NCBI GenBank assembly: GCA_027490575.1
Contig: JAIXXV010000032.1
Location: 13,211-77,210 of the forward strand
Source of the DNA: a bacterium
GTDB taxonomy: Bacteria > Patescibacteriota > Minisyncoccia > Phycocordibacterales > CAIZLB01
Length of the DNA stretch: 64,000 nt
Direction: 5' to 3'
Below, one piece after another: positions 2,752 to 63,764 of the stretch. The notes beneath the pieces are model-generated. The model was not told the DNA's origin. It saw only the letters and a program-made list of their open reading frames with translations, and searched no databases. A program made the position numbers and the translations under genes. Within the stretch, counting starts at the first letter, position 1, and the number at the start of each line of letters is the position of its first letter.

Positions 2752-3303
2752 ATGAGTTTTTTATCAAGACAATTTAAAGAGTGGCGTTATACGATTTTGC
2801 TTTTCATTGTATTGATATCTATCCGACTATTTGTTGCAGAGCCATTTCTAGTTTATGGAAGTTCTATGGATCCCACGTTTACATCCGGTGATTATCTGGT
2901 GGTTGATGAGATAAGTTACAAGCTAGAAAATCCAAAGAGAGGTGAAGTCATAGTTTTCATACCACCATATGACAACACCAGACATTTTATAAAAAGGATT
3001 ATAGGGCTTCCAGGTGAGACAGTTATAGTTGATGGTTCAGTTATAAAGATTATAAATGACCAGAATCCAAAAGGATTTATCTTGGATGAGCCATATGTAA
3101 AGTTCCAGAGCAATAGAAAATCCACAGTAAAACTCAGCGAAAATGAGTATTATGTGGCTGGTGACAACAGAAATGTCAGCTACGACTCTAGAAGCTGGGG
3201 TGCCTTGCCATCTGAGAATATTACTGGTAGAGCATTATTGAGATTGTATCCTTTCCAAAGTATAGGTATACTCCCTGGAAATGAGCACATTACGGCTGAA
3301 TAA
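2752..3303 (+). CDS. lepB: signal peptidase I
   Basis: N-terminal TM, GSSMDPT (catalytic Ser box), KRIIGLPGE (Lys box), GDNRNVSYDSRSWG box. Confidence 0.85.
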   Translation: MSFLSRQFKEWRYTILLFIVLISIRLFVAEPFLVYGSSMDPTFTSGDYLVVDEISYKLENPKRGEVIVFIPPYDNTRHFIKRIIGLPGETVIVDGSVIKIINDQNPKGFILDEPYVKFQSNRKSTVKLSENEYYVAGDNRNVSYDSRSWGALPSENITGRALLRLYPFQSIGILPGNEHITAE

Positions 3304-3432
3304 GGGCCAAATCCTGCATAATAGCCTTACATAGGCCGCAGACAGCTCAATGCAGGGCCAAGGGTCCAGATTTAGACGCAATATCGGACACAGCATATAG
3401 CTGGATTTAGCATAAATAAATCAAACAAAAAA

Positions 3433-10361: not shown

Positions 10362-11222
10362 ATGCAAAGCGAATTAGAAAAACAAGTAGAAGGAGCAGAA
10401 GATGGTGCAGAAAAAGACGAAATCGACTCGAGCATCTCGAGTGAGGTAGTTACCACGACAACAACAGCGCAAGGTGTCAAGCTTACCGAGCGAGAGCTCA
10501 GGATGCTGTTTGTCAGGACAAATCTGATTGACGACCTTGTCATGAGTATCGCAGGGAAAGTCCCTAAGAATGAAAAGGATGCCGGCCGGATCAAGAAACT
10601 CATTATTGCGACTCCTGCACAAATCTTGATCTTTGTTATCATTATGATACTGGCAATATTCACAATTTCGTCAGCGAAACATCTTGATCAACTATTCACA
10701 GGGACTGTGTCCAGTGCACTACTCAGTGTATCAGCAATCATGCTAGTTTTTTCCATCATCTTCACGTTGATTTCTGCGATTCGATGGTGGTATGACTACA
10801 AAAAAGAGCAGATTGACGGTTTGAAGAAGGTTGAACTCTTCATCGAGCACTTCCTCGATTCAATCATCCCAATAGAACGAGTCGATCAGGATAAAGTAAT
10901 CCATGAACTAGATGAGTTCGTCTTGGAAAGACTAACAAAAGTCTATCTTCATCTGCAAGCATATGTGGAATATTGCTCTATAAATCACATGATTTCTGTG
11001 TACGGTGTTCCGGAAAATTACGCTGAGTACGAAGAAGAGTGTGAAGTCATGTTTGATATTGCAATTAAAATTGGATGGAGCGTTGGAAATATTAGCCATT
11101 CAAGAGGTCGAATTGCAGGTGCTATCAAACGTCGAATCGATGAACTTGGAGGAGACGGTCTCTGGTCTAATACCTACTACCAGAGATGTGTTCATGGGCA
11201 CACTTGGATATTCCCAACATAA
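10362..11222 (+). CDS. hypothetical membrane protein (2 predicted TM helices), GC-richer than surroundings
   Basis: 286-aa ORF with a good AGGAGG RBS; two long hydrophobic helices; no family recognised. Confidence 0.5.
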   Translation: MQSELEKQVEGAEDGAEKDEIDSSISSEVVTTTTTAQGVKLTERELRMLFVRTNLIDDLVMSIAGKVPKNEKDAGRIKKLIIATPAQILIFVIIMILAIFTISSAKHLDQLFTGTVSSALLSVSAIMLVFSIIFTLISAIRWWYDYKKEQIDGLKKVELFIEHFLDSIIPIERVDQDKVIHELDEFVLERLTKVYLHLQAYVEYCSINHMISVYGVPENYAEYEEECEVMFDIAIKIGWSVGNISHSRGRIAGAIKRRIDELGGDGLWSNTYYQRCVHGHTWIFPT

Positions 11223-11260
11223 GTACATGGTATAACCCGGTTTGTTTGATGATCCAGTAT

Positions 11261-11291
11261 GCGCTCCGCCTGAAAATGGCGGAGCGTTTTA
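11261..11291 (+). terminator. rho-independent terminator
   Basis: GCGCTCCGCC-TGAAAAT-GGCGGAGCG followed by TTTT. Confidence 0.65.
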
Positions 11292-11448
11292 ATTATTTAC
11301 CTATTTACTTATAGTACAAAAATGCTTTAATCTACCTAGATTTTGGTTGTCGGACCATATCTCCAAACACGTAGCATGGAGTAACGGCCGAAAACCGTTG
11401 TTTCCTGGACCCGAAAAGTCCCGTTAATTTGGCACATTCAAAATACAA

Positions 11449-12249
11449 ATGAGGGGCCGACACTTCTCGCACTCAAATACAATGAAACTCAGTGAAATCA
11501 ACTACCGCTTTACAGTCGAACCTGTATTGAGACTAATCCAATCCATGATGAAAAATGGCAATTACATCACTCCACAGAGCTCAAGCAGAACTCTGTCGAT
11601 GATGTTTTGGCTAAATTCGTCCATACGAAACGAGCTGATGCAATGGACTTTCAAAATTGGTCCATCGTGGCCAGAAGATCCAAATCCTCTAAAATCAATT
11701 ACAGGCGCAATGATTGCATTCATCATTGCATTAGCAGCAGGAGTGGCGCAGTACTTATTTCCAAATTTAGTACCATTTTTGATCATTTTCTTGCCCTCAG
11801 CAGTACTGTGTATTTACTGGACCACACTGTCTTTAGCCGCTGTGGTAGTCAGAATCAAAAAAGCATGCTTTCTTACTGACTTTATCAACATAGTTGGTAC
11901 AATACCGCTAATAAGGAGGCAGCATCTCATAAACCCTGGACATCGTGAAAGTAGCTATGATTACCTTGTCGTGGTGATGCTTTTGCAACAACTCATGAGT
12001 GTTTCCAAAAAGGTCAAAGGTAATACTGAAGACCCGAAGCTAAAAGATGAAGAGAAAAGGCTATATGACTCAGCCTTCAAACTTGGTGTACTAGGAGATG
12101 ACATCTCGGCCGTATACACGTTGGTATATCGGTTGATTGAGGAAAAGGAGCAAGGTAAACCTATAGGATCGGGTCAAAATAGCGGCGGAGATGGAGACGG
12201 CTTTCCAGAACCTGACCCAGACGCACTCCCGACAAGCGTCCTTGGTTAA
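11449..12249 (+). CDS. hypothetical multi-pass membrane protein (alternative start at 11482)
   Basis: 266-aa ORF with several hydrophobic helices; shares a 5' leader motif GAGGGGCCGACA with the preceding gene; C-terminal Gly/Asp-rich tail. Confidence 0.45.
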   Translation: MRGRHFSHSNTMKLSEINYRFTVEPVLRLIQSMMKNGNYITPQSSSRTLSMMFWLNSSIRNELMQWTFKIGPSWPEDPNPLKSITGAMIAFIIALAAGVAQYLFPNLVPFLIIFLPSAVLCIYWTTLSLAAVVVRIKKACFLTDFINIVGTIPLIRRQHLINPGHRESSYDYLVVVMLLQQLMSVSKKVKGNTEDPKLKDEEKRLYDSAFKLGVLGDDISAVYTLVYRLIEEKEQGKPIGSGQNSGGDGDGFPEPDPDALPTSVLG

Positions 12250-12383
12250 AGAGACAACGGAAGAGCGCCTGAGAAATCTGAGTAATAGAACGAGATTCTA
12301 GGACTGTGACCACTGTACCTGATAGCAAAGGTATGGTGGTTTTTTATTTGTAAATTATTAGCACCACCCACCTTTTGCACCCA

Positions 12384-12468
12384 ATTCTTAATCCTTAATT
12401 CTTAATTTGCCGGTTCTGTTAATTCTGCGGGCAATTGTCAATTGCTAATTACTAATTACTAATTGCTC
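12384..12468. repeat. 7-nt periodic low-complexity array (TAATTNN/CAGNTAN family)
   Basis: aattcttaatccttaattcttaat...caattgtcaattgctaattactaattactaattgc; heptad phase CAA/TAA/CAG on the minus strand. Confidence 0.6.
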
Positions 12469-26560: not shown

Positions 26561-27333
26561 GCACACTAAATAATCTAGCATCGACACCGGTTGAGAGTCT
26601 GATAAGTACTCCTAGTATTTTTAGCCTGGAAGTTTTCGGTATTGCACTTATAGGAGGACTCCTACCCGCACTGGTATGGCTTTGGTTCTGGATGCATGAA
26701 AGTCATGACCACCATGAGCCAAAAAGCGTGCTTTGGAGTGTATTCATACTTGGCATGGCCAGTGTTTTTTTAGTACTACCAATACAAGCACTTTTGTCTA
26801 GGTATATGGACTTACCAATGGTGCCCGATAACTCATTCAGCATTATACTTTGGGCTGGTATTGAAGAAATTATAAAATACTCAGTTGCATTTGCTGCAGC
26901 ACTTAGATTTAAACCTGATGTATTTGATGAGCCTATAGACGCATTTGTCTATTTGATGACGGCGGCACTTGGCTTTGCTGCTATGGAAAATATACTTTTC
27001 TTGATTGGGCCACTACTACAAGGCGAGACAATCCTGACTATCATGACAGGTAATATGCGCTTTATGGGTGCCAACTTATTGCATGTTGCTTCATCAGGTG
27101 CACTGTCTATATTTATAGCCTATGGATATTACAAATCAAAAACTGCTCAACTTGGATACTTGATATCAGGACTTGCTGCGGCTACTCTATTGCATGCATT
27201 GTTTAATTTTCTTATAATACTATTAACAGAAATACAAAAGGAAATGATCTTTGTTGCATTCTCATACGTTTGGGTCACTCTGATCATTCTGATTCTGGCA
27301 CTTGAAAAGGTGAAAAAGATAAAACAATTTTAG
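26548..27333 (+). CDS. PrsW-family intramembrane metalloprotease
   Basis: Multi-TM protein; EExxK (GIEEIIKY) and FxxxH (LHALFNF) motifs; 13-nt overlap with valS. Confidence 0.65.
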   Translation: MAFLSTLNNLASTPVESLISTPSIFSLEVFGIALIGGLLPALVWLWFWMHESHDHHEPKSVLWSVFILGMASVFLVLPIQALLSRYMDLPMVPDNSFSIILWAGIEEIIKYSVAFAAALRFKPDVFDEPIDAFVYLMTAALGFAAMENILFLIGPLLQGETILTIMTGNMRFMGANLLHVASSGALSIFIAYGYYKSKTAQLGYLISGLAAATLLHALFNFLIILLTEIQKEMIFVAFSYVWVTLIILILALEKVKKIKQF

Positions 27334-27334
27334 T

Positions 27335-27391
27335 CAGTTAGCAGGTATCAGATGACAGATATCAGTTGTCAGATAGCAGGTATCAGTTAGG
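27335..27391 (+). repeat. 7-nt periodic CAGNNNN array (8 units)
   Basis: CAGTTAG CAGGTAT CAGATGA CAGATAT CAGTTGT CAGATAG CAGGTAT CAGTTAG directly after the prsW stop, about 55 nt upstream of the hsp20 ATG. Confidence 0.65.
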
Positions 27392-34515: not shown

Positions 34516-34520
34516 GGTTT

Positions 34521-34575
34521 TACAGTTATCAGTTAGCAATTAACAGTTAAAGAATTAAGAAATCAATAGTTAATC
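34521..34575. repeat. 7-nt periodic CAGNTAN-family array in the smc 5' leader
   Basis: CAGTTAT CAGTTAG CAATTAA CAGTTAA AGAATTA AGAAATC on the plus strand, adjoining the smc start codon region. Confidence 0.6.
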
Positions 34576-35398: not shown

Positions 35399-35446
35399 AA
35401 CTGTTAACTGCTATCTGATATCTGTCATCTGACACCTGTTAAGCTA
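35399..35446. repeat. 7-nt periodic array (CAG phase on the minus strand)
   Basis: Plus strand CTGTTAA CTGCTAT CTGATAT CTGTCAT CTGACAC CTGTTAA between the nusB-nudix stop and rnc. Confidence 0.6.
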
Positions 35447-49873: not shown

Positions 49874-51127
49874 ATGAAAAACTTTATTAAAATCATTATC
49901 ATAGTAGCAATACTGGTTATACTGGTATTTCTAAGTGTTGGTATAGTGCGTATTGTACCTAGAGTAGTGTCTTCCCTAGCCTCAGCTACGGTGTCACTTG
50001 GCTCATTTTTTACTGGTGGTTCAGACAGCAATGCCACTTCAACTTCAAGTAGTGGTAACAGTACTAACAATAATGGTACTCAAACATCTACATCTACAAG
50101 TGGAAATGGTTTTGTAGTGATTAATGGAACATCAACAAATTCTAGCAATGAAGATGATAGATCATTGGTCAATATACTTAGACCAAACAATACTTCAGGG
50201 CAACCTACTCAAGGTTCAAACAATTCAAACACTTCGAATGTAAAGAACTCTGTAAACAATTCTGCAAACGCAGGTACAGGCAACGTCTCTTATGTTGCAA
50301 ATACATGTACTAACGGTCGTGTATCTGATCTTGCCGTGAGAGTGCTTTCTCGTGGTGTTATGAACAAGGCTACAGGTCAATACATAGAGACCAACTCATT
50401 TACATCAGCTGACACTGTCATCGTAAAGTTTATAGCTGAAAACAGAGGAAGCTGTCCTACGGGCACATGGAGTCTAAGAGTAGACATGCCATCACAAAAC
50501 ACAGCTGATAGAGTTAGAAATATAGTAAACGTAGCTAGTCTTCCTGCTGGTTCTACAGTAACAGGTGAAGTTAACTTCACTACACCTGTAGTTGGAAATT
50601 CAAATGTAACTCTAACAGTAACTGATAACTCAGGTAGAGATTCAAATCTTTCAAACAATACAGTACCGACTTCGATTACGACTATTGCTACTAACACAGG
50701 TACAAATCCTGGAACACCTATCACAGGTGATGGAAGACCTGACCTGGCAGTGCGAATACTTAGAATGGGTACACTTGGATTCAATAACCAATTCGTCCCT
50801 ATCGCAAATACTTCATCTAACTTCGGCGGTAACTTCAGAGTTGGTGAAAGAGTTGCAGTACAATTTGAAGTCATTAACCAAGGACAAACACCTACTGGTG
50901 CATGGACATGGAGAGCTGACTCTGTAGCATTTCAAAATGGAAGCTATACAAACAATCAGTATGAAAATTCAATCCCTGCAGGAGGCAGACTTGTATACAC
51001 TATTGGATTTGATAGTCAGACTATAGGTACAAACAATATCTCTGTCACAGCAGATCATTTGAACCAAGTAAATGAGTTCAATGAATCAAACAATATCGCT
51101 GGTGTTAGTTTCAATGTTGGATACTAA
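49874..51127 (+). CDS. membrane-anchored surface protein with two CARDB-like domains
   Basis: N-terminal TM; Ser/Thr/Asn-rich linker; two modules starting (R)PDLAVR and ending E.NE.NN, the CARDB hallmark. Confidence 0.55.
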   Translation: MKNFIKIIIIVAILVILVFLSVGIVRIVPRVVSSLASATVSLGSFFTGGSDSNATSTSSSGNSTNNNGTQTSTSTSGNGFVVINGTSTNSSNEDDRSLVNILRPNNTSGQPTQGSNNSNTSNVKNSVNNSANAGTGNVSYVANTCTNGRVSDLAVRVLSRGVMNKATGQYIETNSFTSADTVIVKFIAENRGSCPTGTWSLRVDMPSQNTADRVRNIVNVASLPAGSTVTGEVNFTTPVVGNSNVTLTVTDNSGRDSNLSNNTVPTSITTIATNTGTNPGTPITGDGRPDLAVRILRMGTLGFNNQFVPIANTSSNFGGNFRVGERVAVQFEVINQGQTPTGAWTWRADSVAFQNGSYTNNQYENSIPAGGRLVYTIGFDSQTIGTNNISVTADHLNQVNEFNESNNIAGVSFNVGY

Positions 51128-56920: not shown

Positions 56921-56966
56921 TAATTCTTAATTGCTATCTGATAACTGTTATCTGCTACCTGTAACC
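56921..56966. repeat. 7-nt periodic array abutting the methyltransferase start codon
   Basis: Minus strand ACAGGTA GCAGATA ACAGTTA TCAGATA GCAATTA AGAATTA-ATG; no Shine-Dalgarno. Confidence 0.6.
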
Positions 56967-57841: not shown

Positions 57842-58609
57842 CTATAGGTTGAATATACGTCTGAAAAAAGATCCTTTACTCTCCGGATGAGCGCCGTGTA
57901 AGTTGGGTTCTGGATGACCTTTTTTTGTTATCATAAGTACAAATAAAACCACCATAGCCAAGTAAAGCGCAAGTATCAATGGATCAGCTACCACAAAAGA
58001 TGTAGGTAAGAAAAATACTAGAAATAGCCAACTAAGATTGCCTGGTAGCTCAAGGTTGTGTAGCCTCCTAGTAATCATTGACATCATCATAAGCGTAACT
58101 GGCGCAAGTATAAATGGGATGGTTGTGATAAAGAGCCCTTCTTGGTCTGACTCAATAGCCGTAGTGATTGCTTCCCAAAGATTTGGAGAAAGTACAGATA
58201 TAGCAACAGCTCCTATGACGAGCGATAGATAGCCGACACTAAAGAAAAACAGAAAACCTAATATGAAGTCCTTTCTGCGAAGTCTACCGGCAAAAAGACC
58301 TTCGTGCTTTGCCACATGAGCGATTTTGCTCTTAGATACGCCTTCGATATGCCTAGTATCAACACGCCCTGATTCACTTGGTACACTGGATGCACTAGGT
58401 GTACCAGGCATACTTAGCGGTGGCAAGAAATCATTTTGAGCAACTAGGTCTTGATGGATATTTTTGTGCTGTCTCCTAACCTCATTGAATCCGTCCGTAA
58501 TATCTGCTTCTGAAAAACCAGCTCTTAGAAGCATCTGCTTTATATGCTCAGGAGATGTTGAATGCTCTAACTTTAGTCTTATAAAAGAAACTATTCCTTG
58601 TTCAGTCAT
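57842..58609 (-). CDS. DUF805-family membrane protein with an N-terminal soluble domain
   Basis: RRLHNLELPGNLSWLFLVFF...TM helices match the DUF805 (RRLHD.g.sgww) pattern. Confidence 0.5.
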   Translation of the reverse strand: MTEQGIVSFIRLKLEHSTSPEHIKQMLLRAGFSEADITDGFNEVRRQHKNIHQDLVAQNDFLPPLSMPGTPSASSVPSESGRVDTRHIEGVSKSKIAHVAKHEGLFAGRLRRKDFILGFLFFFSVGYLSLVIGAVAISVLSPNLWEAITTAIESDQEGLFITTIPFILAPVTLMMMSMITRRLHNLELPGNLSWLFLVFFLPTSFVVADPLILALYLAMVVLFVLMITKKGHPEPNLHGAHPESKGSFFRRIFNL

Positions 58610-58645
58610 GTAAAAATTATATCACAGAAAAATTATTCAACTACA

Positions 58646-59173
58646 CTAAACAATACTTAGGATGTGATTAAAGTGCTTTTCTGAAACTGGTTGTATGGAA
58701 AGTCTGCTACCTTTTTGACAAACAATCATATCTTTCAACACAGGATCCATTTTTAAATGTTTTAAACTTATCGGCTTGTTAAACTTTTTGACGAACTTAA
58801 AATCAACCAGTACCCAAATTGGCACAAAATTATTTCCATCTTTTTCTGCTTGCTTTTTAAGCTTAAGTGACCTGGGATCAAAGTGCTCATCTTTTGCATC
58901 AAGAGCACTTGGGTCACCGTACGGTGAAGATGCAACCTTTGCCAAGCCATATATACCGGTGGGGTTATCTATATATTTTGAGTTTGAATGATAAAACAAA
59001 GCCAAATCACCAATCTTCATGCTATCCCTCATAAAGTTTCTTGCTTGAAAATTTCTAACACCTGTCCACGGAGAAACACTTTCTCTTTTTAGGTCGTCTA
59101 TTGAAAAGCAATCTGCCTCTGACTTTATCAGCCAAAATGATTTTGCAGGGGTTTTACTCATCTTTTCTACCAT
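58646..59173 (-). CDS. EVE (PUA-like) domain protein
   Basis: FWLIKSEADCFSIDDL...WTGVRNFQARNFMRDSMKIGDLALFYHS matches the EVE domain. Confidence 0.7.
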   Translation of the reverse strand: MVEKMSKTPAKSFWLIKSEADCFSIDDLKRESVSPWTGVRNFQARNFMRDSMKIGDLALFYHSNSKYIDNPTGIYGLAKVASSPYGDPSALDAKDEHFDPRSLKLKKQAEKDGNNFVPIWVLVDFKFVKKFNKPISLKHLKMDPVLKDMIVCQKGSRLSIQPVSEKHFNHILSIV

Positions 59174-59188
59174 TCTTTATCGTCCTTA

Positions 59189-60058
59189 TTATTTAGTTAA
59201 TAGGGTAAATTCAGTAACTGAGATGTTTGATCCGCTTACCGCATAGCTTACCGCTGCATTATAAGTAGAACGTCCGTCCGTGTATGTAACCACAGCTCTG
59301 TTTGTACCATCGAATCTAATACTTGCTATTGTGAATGGAGAAGCAGATTTTACTGGAGACAAAGAATTAATGTTTTGCTTTATAAATGCATTAAACAACT
59401 CTCTTGCTGTAGGCGCTCTTGATGGTTGATTTGTAGTAGTGTCAACCGGTCTGTTCTGAATAGGATTAGCAGTTACAGCACTAGGGAAAGCTGATCTGTT
59501 ATTTTCATCAACAACAACTTCAGCTTCAGGTATAGTACTCATTGAATAAAAATAATATCCTACTCCAGCTAATGCAAGAATGACGAATATAGAAATAATA
59601 GTCCACCATACCTTGGCCATACTGTGAGGAGTGGTACTAACATGGGTATTAGTATGAGTAACTGGAGTGAATGCAGAAACTGAAGGCGTGGAATTTGAAA
59701 AAGTAGTACTTGTTACTGAAGGCTGTGGCTTGAGAGCCGAATAGCTAGATGCAGGTTTTGGTGAGTCTTGAACAGGTGTTTGAACTGGTGATTGAACAGA
59801 TGTAACTGGTATATGTTGAGGTGCAACACGAGAAGAAGATGTATTCATACCGATAAATGCAGGTGTTGTTTCTACAGTCGCTTTGTCATTGTGATCTGCC
59901 ACAGGCATAGCACCTGGTAAAACCACATCGCTCTTAGTAACTGGTTCGTGAGAAAACCCAGTAGATTGCCCTTGGTTCTGTATAGTATTAATTTGACCCA
60001 GACCAGTTGTATTACCAGCTAAATTTCCGTCTTGTTTAGGTATTAAATTATCATTCAT
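59189..60058 (-). CDS. hypothetical single-pass membrane protein, Ser/Thr/Pro/Val-rich
   Basis: 289-aa ORF; central TM helix WWTIISIFVILALAGVGYYF; low-complexity N-terminus. Confidence 0.4.
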   Translation of the reverse strand: MNDNLIPKQDGNLAGNTTGLGQINTIQNQGQSTGFSHEPVTKSDVVLPGAMPVADHNDKATVETTPAFIGMNTSSSRVAPQHIPVTSVQSPVQTPVQDSPKPASSYSALKPQPSVTSTTFSNSTPSVSAFTPVTHTNTHVSTTPHSMAKVWWTIISIFVILALAGVGYYFYSMSTIPEAEVVVDENNRSAFPSAVTANPIQNRPVDTTTNQPSRAPTARELFNAFIKQNINSLSPVKSASPFTIASIRFDGTNRAVVTYTDGRSTYNAAVSYAVSGSNISVTEFTLLTK

Positions 60059-60080
60059 GATACGACAATTGTAACATAAA

Positions 60081-60656
60081 CTATAATTTACGTATAACCG
60101 CTTTAACTACAGCAGCAATTTTGAGGTCATACTCAGGGTATATATTTTTAAATTTTTTATTTGCCGGTTCAAGGTATATCTGACCTTTTTTATCTCTCCT
60201 AAAATACTTCATCGTCCAACCTCCGTCGACTTCTGCGATTACAATATCTCCCACCTTTGCATTTTCAGTTCTCTCAACAAGAACAAGGTCACCTTCAGCT
60301 ATGTGAGCTTCTATCATTGATTCCCCTTTCACTTCGAGCATATACGTTGAGCCTTTTGTACCTTCCAAAAGGAGCTCGTCTATAGAAGTAGAATCAAGTA
60401 CATCTTCTTCTGCCACTGTTGGCATACCAGCTTCTACTAGTCCAAGTAAAGGAATCTCATTTGAAAGCTTTTGGGGTGTAAGCTTGCCCCTCGAGTCCTT
60501 GTTGAATACACCTTCCTCTACAAGTTTGTTAATGAGTTTATAGACAGCATTTTTGGACTTGAATCCAAGCATATCCATAATCTCATTATACCCAGGCACA
60601 CGCCTATTGGTCTTATAGAAATTAAGTATTTTTTGTTTGTAATCTTGGTAAGTCAT
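60081..60656 (-). CDS. lexA: LexA repressor
   Basis: N-terminal winged HTH; S24 peptidase domain with an Ala-Gly-like cleavage region (VEAGMPT), GESM catalytic Ser and a downstream Lys. Confidence 0.85.
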   Translation of the reverse strand: MTYQDYKQKILNFYKTNRRVPGYNEIMDMLGFKSKNAVYKLINKLVEEGVFNKDSRGKLTPQKLSNEIPLLGLVEAGMPTVAEEDVLDSTSIDELLLEGTKGSTYMLEVKGESMIEAHIAEGDLVLVERTENAKVGDIVIAEVDGGWTMKYFRRDKKGQIYLEPANKKFKNIYPEYDLKIAAVVKAVIRKL

Positions 60657-60662
60657 TTTTTG

Positions 60663-60755
60663 CAGTTATCAGGTGGTGGTTAGCAGATATCAGGTATCAG
60701 ATGACAGATATCAGGTATCAGGTATCAGGTATCAGATGACAGATATCAGGTATCC
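60663..60755 (+). repeat. 7-nt periodic CAGNNNN array (13 units) in the lexA leader
   Basis: CAGTTAT CAGGTGG TGGTTAG CAGATAT CAGGTAT CAGATGA CAGATAT CAGGTAT CAGGTAT CAGGTAT CAGATGA CAGATAT CAGGTAT, beginning 7 nt upstream of the lexA ATG. Confidence 0.7.
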
Positions 60756-61037
60756 ATTAAATGCTAATGCTTAGATGCTGGAGTCTATTAAAACATGAAT
60801 GAGGCGAGTGAGAATGTTCTAGCTAATGAAGCCTCACTTTCAAGTCTTCTCAATTGTAGCATGAGGTTCTTATGCTTTCGAGATTCCTTTTCATATGATT
60901 CTCCTTTTATGATTTTAAAATCTATTCTTTTGTTGATTGAGTTAAGCTCTCTTCTTATTGCAAACATAATTGTCATTTTTCTCATGGTATTTATTTTGTT
61001 ATTTTTTAATGTTCTTTGTCTTTCCTTGTATGTTTAT

Positions 61038-61066
61038 ATAATAGGTGAACTATAGTTCACTGTCAA
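61038..61066 (-). promoter_or_regulatory. consensus promoter TTGACA-17-TATTAT (minus strand) with a GAAC-N4-GTTC LexA/Cheo-type box in the spacer
   Basis: Minus strand TTTGACA-GTGAACTATAGTTCACC-TATTAT; the 16-bp perfect palindrome GTGAACTATAGTTCAC (61045-61060) fits the Gram-positive SOS box GAAC-N4-GTTC. Confidence 0.55.
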
Positions 61067-61100
61067 ACATTTAGTATAAAAATACTGTGGATAAGTCTTA

Positions 61101-61147
61101 AACAGATAACAGTTGGTAATTATCAGGTGACAGTTAGCAGTTAGGTG
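61101..61147 (+). repeat. 7-nt periodic CAGNNNN array
   Basis: CAGATAA CAGTTGG TAATTAT CAGGTGA CAGTTAG CAGTTAG overlapping the helicase stop codon region. Confidence 0.55.
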
Positions 61148-62610
61148 CTTATCAAAAAATCAACAACTCTCTGGTCTACTTGTATATCTCTTCTCGTTAT
61201 AGGTTTGGTGAGCTGAATCCCCTCGAGACTTCTAACGCGACTTAGCGCCACATAAGCTTGTCCATGTGCAAAAGTCCCCTTTCCAAAATCTATGATTGCA
61301 TTATCGAACGTTTTACCTTGACTCTTGTGTATAGTAACTGCCCAAGCAAGTTTTACCGGTATTTGTATGTACTTTCCAACAACCTCAGAAGAAACTCTGT
61401 TTTGCTTTGAGTCAAATTCATATCTAACTGATTCCCAACTTTCACTTTCAACTTCCTCGGTCTTGCCATTACGAAGTTGTACATTGATGGAAGTTGAGTT
61501 TAGCTTTTTTACAATACCAAGATCTCCATTGACCCATCTGCCCATAGGATCATTTCTAAGCATCATGACTTGTGCGCCAACTTTCAGCACCAGAGCTTCA
61601 GGCGCTGGTGTAGTTTTTCTATCAAAAGCTCCTTGTACATGACCTTTGTATGTTTTAGCGGCACCATATATTTCAGTTAGCTTTTTGTTATTGATTACCT
61701 CAGCTGATGCATTGGTAGAAACTAGATATATGGCATCACTTGGCATTTTTTTCTTTTTATTTAAACTGCTTTTGCCTGCATTTTTTGAATGAGCGCCAGA
61801 CTTAGTTTTTCCACCAATCCCCTCACTACTATCATTGTCCATATCAATCACTAGCTCATAATCACCTCCGAATTGATAGTCAGACTCTGATTGAAATCCA
61901 CCTGAATCTGACACGGAGTCTTGATTGAAATTTTGTGAAAAATCTAGACAGCACACTGAATTGATTTTATAAAGATCATTTTCATCCATACGACCTGTAC
62001 GAATCCTATCAAGGATAGAGACGAACTCAGTATCACTTTGTCTATAAACTTCTGTAAGCTCAGCTATCTGGAAATTGCCCTTGGGATATGACTTTGAATC
62101 AAAAAAGTATGGGCTCTGATAATGATCTATGAAGACGTACTGTTCATGTGGAGCAACTACCGGAGGCAACTGAAACATGTCTCCAATAGCCACCATTTGT
62201 ACACCACCAAAAAACTCACCAGGCTTTGGACCGTTGAGTCTAAGGAATCTCTCAACACAATCAAAAAGATCTGCACGGACCATAGATATTTCATCTATTA
62301 CAAGTGTGTCTAGCTTTTTGTAAAGCTTAGATAAGGTCTCATCTGAGATAATGCTTATATCTCTATCTATCACACCTATCTTAAACTTAAAGAAGCTGTG
62401 TATGGTCTGACCTTTGATATTTAGTGCTGCTATGCCTGTGGGTGCAACTACGGCTATGTTTTTCTTGGTGGTATCTCGAAAATGTTGCAGCAAAGTAGAT
62501 TTACCAGTACCAGCTCTACCAGTAATGAATATGTTTTGGCTAGAATTTTCAAGCAAATCTAATATATCTTTTGACTCGTCAGATAATTTCATATCTGAAT
62601 AATACTCCAA
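61141..62610 (-). CDS. PIF1/RecD-like superfamily 1 DNA helicase
   Basis: Walker A ITGRAGTGKSTLL, Walker B LVIDEISMV, C-terminal AVTIHKSQG...AYVALSRV (motifs V/VI of the Pif1/RecD/TraA clade); Asp/Ser-rich insertion. Confidence 0.8.
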   Translation of the reverse strand: MEYYSDMKLSDESKDILDLLENSSQNIFITGRAGTGKSTLLQHFRDTTKKNIAVVAPTGIAALNIKGQTIHSFFKFKIGVIDRDISIISDETLSKLYKKLDTLVIDEISMVRADLFDCVERFLRLNGPKPGEFFGGVQMVAIGDMFQLPPVVAPHEQYVFIDHYQSPYFFDSKSYPKGNFQIAELTEVYRQSDTEFVSILDRIRTGRMDENDLYKINSVCCLDFSQNFNQDSVSDSGGFQSESDYQFGGDYELVIDMDNDSSEGIGGKTKSGAHSKNAGKSSLNKKKKMPSDAIYLVSTNASAEVINNKKLTEIYGAAKTYKGHVQGAFDRKTTPAPEALVLKVGAQVMMLRNDPMGRWVNGDLGIVKKLNSTSINVQLRNGKTEEVESESWESVRYEFDSKQNRVSSEVVGKYIQIPVKLAWAVTIHKSQGKTFDNAIIDFGKGTFAHGQAYVALSRVRSLEGIQLTKPITRRDIQVDQRVVDFLIST

Positions 62611-62615
62611 TCAAT

Positions 62616-63764
62616 CTAACCCTGCATCTTCTTTTTTGTCTTTTGTTGTTGCATTAGTTTAAATGCAGTAGCTATGTCTGAAACAGAGGCTTGTGCATTG
62701 GCACTAGATGATACAGTTGACGCATCAGACGCATTTGAGAAAGACACGAGTCTCTGATTTCCAAATGAGTAATATTTATGGAATACAAGTGCACCCAGTA
62801 AACTACTTAGCATTAAGCCCGTAAGCAAGATTGCGCTTTTTACGCCAGGAGTTACTCCTGTTGCAGGAACTTGGTTTAGGAATACACCCGAGACCGGCTG
62901 TCCAGAAACACCAGAAGTGTACTGGTACGTAGGTTGAACATAAGTATAAGTAGTCGGTTGTGTATATACAGGTTGTGTATATGTTTGTTGGTAGTTGTAG
63001 TCGTAAGGATAATAGTATTGATTTGGATTTTGATATTGCCAATTCCAAGTTTGATTTTGCCAAGTATTGTTCCAACTACTATTATTCCAGCCATTATTCC
63101 ATGTATTGTTCCAATTATTATTCCAGTTGTTATTTGTTCCATAACCAACTTGTACAAATAAACTTGCACAAGAAGTATTATTAAATGATGAGCAAATTGT
63201 GTAAGACATTGTACCTAATTGATTACCTGTAACTGTTATCTGGCTACCACTTATATAAGCACTAGCAATACTTGAGTTATTGTTATTTGAAATAAAATAT
63301 CCTCCGCCAGTACCTGAGATATTTACAGATTGAGTTTGCCCCACATTCAGAGTAAGACTTGTCTGACTTAAGCTTATGGTTTGATTATTCCATGTTCCAC
63401 CTGTCACATTGACCTGAAGCGTTGCACAAGGAGCCATAGACGCTTGCGAACATATAGTTAGACTTGATGTTCCTTGAGATAGACCTTGAACTTGCACTAG
63501 TCCACTTGATGATCCTGCACTTACCACGGTACTGTTTGAGTTTGCTGATACGTAGTAGTTACCTGATCCACCTGACACATTTACAGTAACTGTTTGACCT
63601 GAGTTTATATTTATAAATGACTGACTAAGATATATTGGTCCGTAGTAAGGGGTTGACTGTGCACTAGCAAAACCACCTGGCACCAAAAAAGATAGTGCAG
63701 ATAGGCATACTGAAACTGCGAAAATGGTGCTTTTTATAGCTATTTTTTTAGATATATTTGTCAT
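62616..63764 (-). CDS. secreted surface protein with Ig-like repeats, an Asn/Trp-rich repeat region and a C-terminal VPATG-type signal
   Basis: Signal peptide; two homologous beta-rich modules; (WNN)n tract; C-terminal GVSGQPVSGVFLNQVPATG + TM helix + about 50-aa tail. Confidence 0.6.
   Translation of the reverse strand: MTNISKKIAIKSTIFAVSVCLSALSFLVPGGFASAQSTPYYGPIYLSQSFININSGQTVTVNVSGGSGNYYVSANSNSTVVSAGSSSGLVQVQGLSQGTSSLTICSQASMAPCATLQVNVTGGTWNNQTISLSQTSLTLNVGQTQSVNISGTGGGYFISNNNNSSIASAYISGSQITVTGNQLGTMSYTICSSFNNTSCASLFVQVGYGTNNNWNNNWNNTWNNGWNNSSWNNTWQNQTWNWQYQNPNQYYYPYDYNYQQTYTQPVYTQPTTYTYVQPTYQYTSGVSGQPVSGVFLNQVPATGVTPGVKSAILLTGLMLSSLLGALVFHKYYSFGNQRLVSFSNASDASTVSSSANAQASVSDIATAFKLMQQQKTKKKMQG

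Follow-up and report, generated by a model that had tools for sequence, protein, structure and literature searches.

Autoregulation of the SOS repressor LexA is textbook knowledge. In the Gram-positive (Cheo/DinR-type) SOS system, a palindromic box with a GAAC-N4-GTTC core overlaps the lexA promoter, and the repressor carries an S24 self-cleaving domain. For the Patescibacteria, a 2017 study by Sánchez-Osuna, Barbé, and Erill (Environ Microbiol 19:3465) reportedly described a small SOS regulon centered on lexA and translesion polymerases. Here we describe a lexA locus from the same superphylum and with the same repressor, located in a 64,000-nucleotide (64-kb) stretch of an uncultured patescibacterial genome (contig JAIXXV010000032.1, positions 13,211 to 77,210), which we call the window. 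Positions 60081-61094 of the window, read on the minus strand, very probably form a two-gene SOS operon of a Paceibacteria (Patescibacteria/candidate phyla radiation [CPR]) bacterium, in which a DnaA box, a near-consensus sigma-70 promoter with a LexA operator, a small gene, and lexA follow one another. Operators and autoregulation of this kind are known and have probably been described for Patescibacteria already. The novelty appears to lie in the small first cistron and the DnaA box; two works citing the 2017 study (PMC8565304, PMC7739468) mention neither an upstream small open reading frame (ORF) nor a DnaA box.

SOS division inhibitors recur beside lexA. One such lexA-adjacent inhibitor is found in the Pseudomonas lexA-sulA operon. 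Nonhomologous SOS division inhibitors also adjoin lexA in several phyla, namely, YneA in B. subtilis, SosA in S. aureus, ChiZ in M. tuberculosis, and DivS in C. glutamicum (PMC6851548). With YneA, SosA, ChiZ, and DivS the locus described here shares a small lineage-specific protein that lacks homologs in other lineages and is encoded beside lexA and, as predicted, control by a LexA box. Furthermore, B. subtilis Sda, which has DnaA boxes in its promoter, reports replication stress (PMC10730256, PMC8203912), and the E. coli genes uvrB and recN are coregulated by DnaA and LexA (PMC6015884, PMC8203912).

On the minus strand, positions 61066 to 61038 consist of the -35 hexamer TTGACA (61061..61066), the 17-nucleotide (nt) spacer GTGAACTATAGTTCACC, and the -10 hexamer TATTAT (61038..61043). 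This promoter scored 11 of 12 in a consensus scan and was the top site within positions 59900-61400. The spacer is filled by a perfect 16-bp palindrome, GTGAACTATAGTTCAC (61045..61060), which reads GTGAAC-TATA-GTTCAC, and 382 bp separate the -10 hexamer from the lexA ATG. The initial annotation had reported this promoter with its palindromic GAAC-N4-GTTC spacer, together with a 65-codon ORF (60788..60985, minus strand), an 86-codon antisense ORF (60795..61055, plus strand), and lexA (60081..60656, minus strand), and the sequence and all of these coordinates were confirmed. A transcription start placed near 61031 from the position of the -10 hexamer would give a 5' untranslated region of about 46 nt (60986..61031, minus strand) that is A-rich and unstructured, with a minimum free energy of 0 kcal/mol on folding. 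In the window, there are eight promoters that score at least 11/12 (2.35 expected) and three 16-bp palindromes (1.3 expected), the latter not significant alone. A second 16-bp palindrome, GTGAAGTTAACTTCAC at 50565, was dismissed in that it sits within an ORF of 417 amino acids (aa). We take the operator as real because it is conserved across loci and not because of window statistics.

The arrangement TTGACA-GTGAAC-N4-GTTCAC-C-TAT(T/A)(A/C)T was kept throughout the L001-L015 set of 14 close and related loci, which have the small ORF, and N4 (TATA, TGTA, TATG, TGTG, or CATG) was the sole part of the box that varied. Another 28 lexA loci came from GTDB species representatives of the Patescibacteria (L016-L042 and L049). 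An exact GAAC-N4-GTTC stood between -35-like and -10-like hexamers in 24 of them, and the other 4 had a one-mismatch box or a GTAC variant. Across relatives, the -35 hexamer is TTGACA or TTGCAG and abuts the box or lies 1 nt away, the half-sites are invariant while N4 is free, and the -10 hexamer is TATACT or TATAAT at the same position. Additionally, when metagenomes were scanned for GTGAAC-N4-GTTCAC with a -10 hexamer behind it, at least 120 loci matched, and lexA or the small-ORF–lexA operon was downstream in 98 of the 113 matches listed with sufficient downstream sequence. In all, a promoter-embedded GTGAAC-N4-GTTCAC precedes lexA at about 150 Patescibacteria loci. By this conservation, the palindrome is a LexA-type operator inside the lexA promoter, and the autoregulatory layout that the initial annotation had suggested is borne out. 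The operator differs from the Cheo/DinR type in its flanks, which are GT/AC here (GTGAAC…GTTCAC) and CGAAC…GTTCG there, and in its placement exactly in the -35/-10 spacer. Furthermore, lexA is the second gene in the operon here, not the first.

The remaining metagenome matches listed include ones with other genes behind the box. A Y-family (IMS) polymerase gene came right after it in L107 and L135, and in L203 a GIY-YIG gene was inserted before the small ORF. N6-methylase/Eco57I-like genes were found behind the box in L156 (approximately 3282-3304, minus strand), whose promoter additionally carries a TTATCCACA box, and in L106 (9723-9745), and a phage terminase small subunit gene was found behind it in L157 (400-422). 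A few high-GC matches looked random. The boxes in L156, L106, and L157 may reflect SOS-controlled restriction-modification or phage genes in CPR bacteria. A Y-family polymerase gene also follows many lexA copies that lack the small ORF, and L017 holds both kinds of operon, small-ORF–lexA and lexA paralog–polymerase. In that locus, a second lexA paralog (198 aa) is followed by a Y-family polymerase gene (10435-12420, minus strand), and the promoter of the paralog, TTGACA-TTAGAACAAACGTTCTAC-TATACT, has its own embedded box with TAGAAC, not GTGAAC, flanks. These flanks suggest that there are two LexA specificities within one genome. The initial annotation had held that its SOS box should recur upstream of other DNA damage genes, and in relatives it does, at Y-family polymerase genes and operons. 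A scan of 395 kb of Patescibacteria flanks found further boxes at chance level, except for one lexA-paralog/polymerase operon, and none of the loci retrieved had a recA, uvrA, uvrB, or ruvB motif.

The second gene of the operon (60081..60656, minus strand) encodes a protein of 191 aa. It matched the LexA equivalog model TIGR00498 of NCBIfam, which spans an N-terminal winged-helix DNA-binding domain and a C-terminal S24 domain, over residues 13-191 with 115.9 bits (cutoff, 110.95) and Peptidase_S24 (PF00717) with an E value of 1.1e-25; its match to PF01726, taken alone, was weak (E = 0.029). The nearest solved structure is that of Thermotoga LexA (3K2Z), which aligned over residues 12-191. An alignment of 27 sequences of the LexA family shows no variation at the Ala76-Gly77 cleavage site, Ser113, or Lys150. 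By family model, structural relative, and catalytic residues, the product is a genuine LexA. Its homologs assign the organism to the class Paceibacteria ("Parcubacteria") of the Patescibacteria. In L015 (3237-3811), lexA was called as two ORFs (91 and 86 aa), which could represent a frameshift/pseudogene or an assembly error.

The first gene of the operon (60788..60985, minus strand) encodes a basic protein of 65 aa. We found 11 close homologs at 63-100% identity and of nearly constant length, in which the C-terminal half, L-x-LESEAS-x-ARTF…ASF-x-F, is (nearly) invariant. Compared with the near-complete relative L014, the ORF has 13 synonymous and 2 nonsynonymous differences (dN/dS of 0.03), and compared with L015 it has a pN of 0.08 and a pS of 0.80. 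A profile search returned 308 cluster representatives (50% identity clusters) at an E value of 1e-3 or less, typically of 58-70 residues, that share the signature E-L-x2-L-N-x2-I-D-x-K-I-x-G-x2-Y-x2-E-A-x-R-H-K-x-L and, behind it, have a basic stretch and an aromatic/hydrophobic tail. AlphaFold2 modeled the 65-aa protein as a two-helix hairpin (pLDDT, 90), and its fold matches were generic hairpins only. The family has a mean net charge of +8 and a top 19-residue hydropathy of no more than 1.07, with no transmembrane-like segment. Neither the protein nor 43 family members had a Pfam, NCBIfam, or PDB-sequence match, and all of the named members (Taylorbacteria, Parcubacteria, Paceibacterota) are called "hypothetical protein." By its conservation, its dN/dS ratio, and its AlphaFold2 model, the 65-codon ORF is a real gene under strong purifying selection and the founder of an unannotated family. 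The initial annotation had pointed to the lack of a Shine-Dalgarno (SD) site at this ORF. That lack is no argument against a gene, as only 9 of 54 window genes have an SD-like motif. A -10-like (TATAAT-like) hexamer ends 7-10 nt before many ATGs of the window, and this pattern suggests that leaderless mRNAs are widespread in this genome.

The small gene was immediately upstream of lexA in every locus that reached far enough. Even members with only 33-37% identity to the window protein adjoin an S24/lexA gene on its upstream side, with other neighbors changed. The gene occurs with one LexA clade only and is absent from the lexA–polymerase paralogs. In 13 loci without the small ORF, the box core lies 21-76 bp, mostly 27-28 bp, before the lexA ATG, and a distance of about 27 bp implies that lexA is leaderless in such direct-lexA loci. 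With the small ORF present, the box lies 231-441 bp before lexA and 27-196 bp before the small-ORF ATG. The distance of about 390 bp between promoter and lexA in the window thus exists because of an extra first cistron, as relatives without the small ORF have the box near lexA. From the small-ORF stop to the lexA start, the distance in relatives is usually -4 to +20 bp, and this gap in most of them suggests translational coupling of the small gene and lexA.

Upstream of the promoter, we identified a predicted DnaA box, TTATCCACA (61086..61094, minus strand), 19 bp from the -35 hexamer. It is the sole perfect TTATCCACA in the window and the sole window match to a DnaA box beside a promoter. In 18 of 35 loci (GTDB and related), an exact TTATNCACA with the same orientation begins 19-37 bp before the GAAC core, and exact matches are present in 16 of the 22 small-ORF loci of that set; the background is 0.097 exact matches per kb. 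Among the metagenome matches listed, 52 of the 67 small-ORF promoters carried the box, compared with 2 of the 30 that drive lexA directly (Fisher p = 2e-11), and 56 of the 60 boxes found among them are a perfect TTATCCACA. Variation is confined to position 5 (C, G, A, or T), where the DnaA consensus is known to be degenerate. By position, the boxes form two classes separated by about 10 bp (one helical turn), and the window belongs to the minor, more distal class. From these observations, we infer that DnaA binds TTATCCACA upstream of the -35 hexamer. DnaA and LexA boxes likewise share one SOS gene promoter region in E. coli, at uvrB and recN (PMC6015884). However, it is the lexA operon itself that has them here, with one DnaA box in a fixed helical phase upstream of the -35 hexamer and with class-wide conservation.

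In the operon that we propose, LexA bound in the spacer would occlude RNA polymerase. DNA damage would lead to RecA-stimulated self-cleavage of LexA, for which the Ala-Gly site and the Ser/Lys dyad are present, and the promoter would be derepressed. The small protein and new LexA would then be made from one mRNA. DnaA bound at TTATCCACA, centered about 55-60 bp upstream of the predicted transcription start, would provide an input for replication status. The small protein, in turn, could act as a checkpoint effector that inhibits cell division or replication initiation via protein-protein contact, with its aromatic/hydrophobic C-terminal tail as a possible recognition element for a partner, the membrane, or a protease.

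Several points weigh against this operon model. It rests on sequence comparison in an uncultured lineage, and a single GAAC-N4-GTTC box is present in the 64-kb window (0.82 expected), a count that is not significant alone, so that the evidence for a regulon comes from related organisms only. The DnaA box matches in the window are likewise at chance level (5 compared with 3.6 expected), and the one at this promoter is a single 9-mer. The role given to the small protein has no support from homology, as searches of Pfam, NCBIfam, and PDB gave no relative and the folds matched were generic hairpins, and its tight coupling to lexA suits a LexA accessory factor equally well. Finally, the gap of 131 bp between the small ORF and lexA in this strain leaves room for a separate lexA promoter, and an extended -10 candidate is present inside the small ORF (60881..60853, minus strand; TG before TCGAAA-N17-TACAAT; 9/12), although it is not conserved in L001 and L002.

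Our proposal that the small protein is a checkpoint effector inhibiting division or replication initiation is a tentative one. We make it because SOS division inhibitors recur beside lexA (PMC6851548), because the gene is associated with a DnaA box, and because the protein has a protruding hydrophobic C-terminal tail. The C-terminal end of SosA has been implicated in turnover (PMC6851548). Unlike the genes for the described division inhibitors, the gene here is codirectional with and upstream of lexA, and its product has no transmembrane segment, LysM domain, or sequence similarity to them; Pfam and NCBIfam searches with the small protein found no homology to SulA, YneA, SosA, ChiZ, or DivS. 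Sda (PF08970) shares with it a small helical hairpin and DnaA boxes at the promoter. However, Sda is an acidic protein whose targets are sporulation kinases, and such kinases would not be expected in Paceibacteria. We rejected homology to Sda, for which hhalign gave a probability of 1.8% and no family member matched PF08970.

The small protein could instead be a dedicated LexA accessory factor, that is, a corepressor or a modulator of self-cleavage, as in the comparison cases of phage GIL01 gp7 with host LexA and Acinetobacter DdrR with UmuDAb. Its strict adjacency to lexA, with a gap of usually -4 to +20 bp, suggests stoichiometric coproduction. Additionally, it is limited to one LexA clade and does not accompany the lexA–polymerase paralogs, and a strongly basic protein would be suited to DNA contact. 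However, Pfam and PDB searches found no homology to gp7 or DdrR. Furthermore, the same operator serves LexA relatives that lack the small gene, and therefore such a factor is not needed for operator recognition. We regard the accessory factor as less likely than not but, given the tight coupling to lexA, as the main rival to a checkpoint effector.

For the DnaA box, we considered whether TTATCCACA might be the target of another factor or a lineage-specific, UP-like promoter element. The presence of a single 9-mer fits such a reading, whereas DnaA usually acts via several boxes. However, TTATCCACA is an exact match to the universal high-affinity DnaA box and varies just at the N of the consensus. 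It does not behave as a general promoter element, with one TTATCCACA in the window and no other DnaA box match by a promoter, and its presence separates two classes of LexA-controlled promoter. We consider a target other than DnaA unlikely.

It is quite improbable that, in this strain, the two genes are separate units, with the box controlling the small gene alone and lexA having its own promoter in or after the heptad array that occupies the gap. Besides the 131-bp gap and the 9/12 candidate at 60881..60853, this arrangement has in its favor the many leaderless-looking genes here, in which a promoter lies right before the ATG. However, no acceptable -10 hexamer is present 6-10 nt before the lexA ATG, and there is no LexA box near lexA, though every relative that lacks the small gene has such a box. 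Moreover, the gap in most relatives is too short for a promoter, and the internal candidate is not conserved.

The gap between the small ORF and lexA (60657-60787) is filled by a variable-number tandem repeat of CTGATAY-like heptads (60659..60749, minus strand). The initial annotation had counted 13 units in this array, and we found the same number, three of them degenerate; Tandem Repeats Finder (TRF) reported 10.1 copies at 60684-60754. Among strains whose small proteins are 98-100% identical, the gap measures 38, 45, 67, 79, or 131 bp, and five short-read assemblies break off within the array. L001, L002, and L015 have no such array. A second, short heptad stretch of six units (61099..61140, minus strand) lies between the stop codon of the upstream Pif1-like helicase gene and the DnaA box, and its length and sequence differ among close strains. 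Arrays of the same type are found at four more intergenic sites (27331-27386, 34519-34546, 35401-35442, and 56931-56965). Their unit is YTGNNNN, for example, CTGATAC, CTGATAT, or CTGTCAT, and they lie in spacers between codirectional genes. Five arrays of at least four units are present in the window (0.17 expected), with mixed orientation relative to transcription, and among all loci retrieved, this unit type forms arrays in the window's close clade only. By its variability and distribution, the heptad array is a lineage-specific, slippage-prone, genome-wide repeat that has expanded the intergenic spacer and is not a dedicated lexA leader. It may alter the coupling of the small ORF and lexA. 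The cyanobacterial short tandemly repeated repetitive (STRR) heptanucleotide sequences are also degenerate 7-bp intergenic tandem arrays of variable copy number, but the likeness is one of form only, as the unit here differs (YTGATAN-like) and the phylum is unrelated. At 4222-4275 of L001, in the gap between the small ORF and lexA, a perfect inverted repeat of 14 bp (CTATTTAATTCTGA…TCAGAATTAAATAG) precedes a T-run and may serve as an internal attenuator/terminator that lets expression of the small gene exceed that of lexA.

The region between promoter and lexA had initially been read as a long structured leader that encodes a toxic peptide and an antisense partner of the tisB/istR kind. In agreement with this, a LexA box precedes the region, as it precedes the short ORF in tisB/istR-1, and the plus strand at 60795..61055 has an open hydrophobic frame of 86 codons. 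However, the 375-nt stretch from promoter to lexA shows no excess structure, folding no better than its shuffles (z = +0.77; heptad region, z = -1.4), and Rfam found only two tRNAs in the whole window and no family at the leader. The supposed leader is a gene instead. The hydrophobic antisense ORF is open (87-94 codons) solely in near-identical strains and is interrupted by stop codons in L002, L015, and most other relatives, and the plus strand has one promoter-like site only, a weak one (9/12). Given a dN/dS of 0.03 in the sense frame, the antisense ORF is therefore best regarded as a side effect of coding on the opposite strand. As for the sense protein, it is basic, with a mean family charge of +8, and has no transmembrane-like segment. 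Unlike tisB/istR-1, the window operon has neither a hydrophobic toxin nor a conserved antisense partner, and its ORF would be cotranscribed with lexA. What survives of the peptide proposed in the initial annotation is a small protein, predicted to be SOS controlled, that is encoded between the promoter and lexA; the hydrophobic toxin-antisense pair is rejected, and we regard that model as highly improbable.

That the palindrome is the intrinsic terminator hairpin of the Pif1-like helicase gene has next to no probability and was rejected: although a terminator scan flagged 61060..61045 (a 6-bp stem and a T-containing tail) and the palindrome lies 75-95 bp past the helicase stop codon, the stem keeps one sequence at about 150 loci, with no compensatory changes, whereas the loop is variable, a -10 hexamer and never a T-run comes directly after the stem, and the element stays with the small ORF and lexA when the upstream gene changes (MscL/VTT, RadC, PG_binding).

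The surroundings of the operon are partly conserved. Downstream of lexA (window 57842-60058), genes for an unannotated protein of 286-374 aa with a hydrophobic segment, an EVE-domain protein, and a DUF805 protein are syntenic in the window, L001, L002, L014, L015, and L100. Upstream, the conserved neighbor in the close clade is the Pif1-like helicase gene. Farther along the window, positions 62616-63764 (minus strand) encode a probable surface protein of 382 aa, which has a signal-like N terminus, an Asn/Trp-rich repeat (NNNWNNNWNNTWNNGWNN…), and weak Ig/pilus-N-like matches.

What had looked like a long leader turned out to be a missed small gene, in a genome largely without SD sites. The gene belongs to an unannotated family (308 representatives) that is fixed to lexA across a large uncultured bacterial class. 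Furthermore, the fixation of a DnaA box at the LexA-repressed promoters of the small-ORF operons suggests that the status of the replication initiator and DNA damage are read at a single promoter. Cell cycle control in CPR bacteria is essentially unknown, and this operon offers a concrete entry point. Across the Paceibacteria, a hitherto unrecognized basic helical-hairpin protein of about 65 residues would head the lexA operon under a promoter that integrates LexA and DnaA, and it is conceivable, at a strength short of an even chance, that this protein is a new checkpoint effector that halts division or replication initiation. If this is true, it would represent a checkpoint in ultrasmall bacteria with reduced genomes, analogous but unrelated to SulA, SosA, or Sda.

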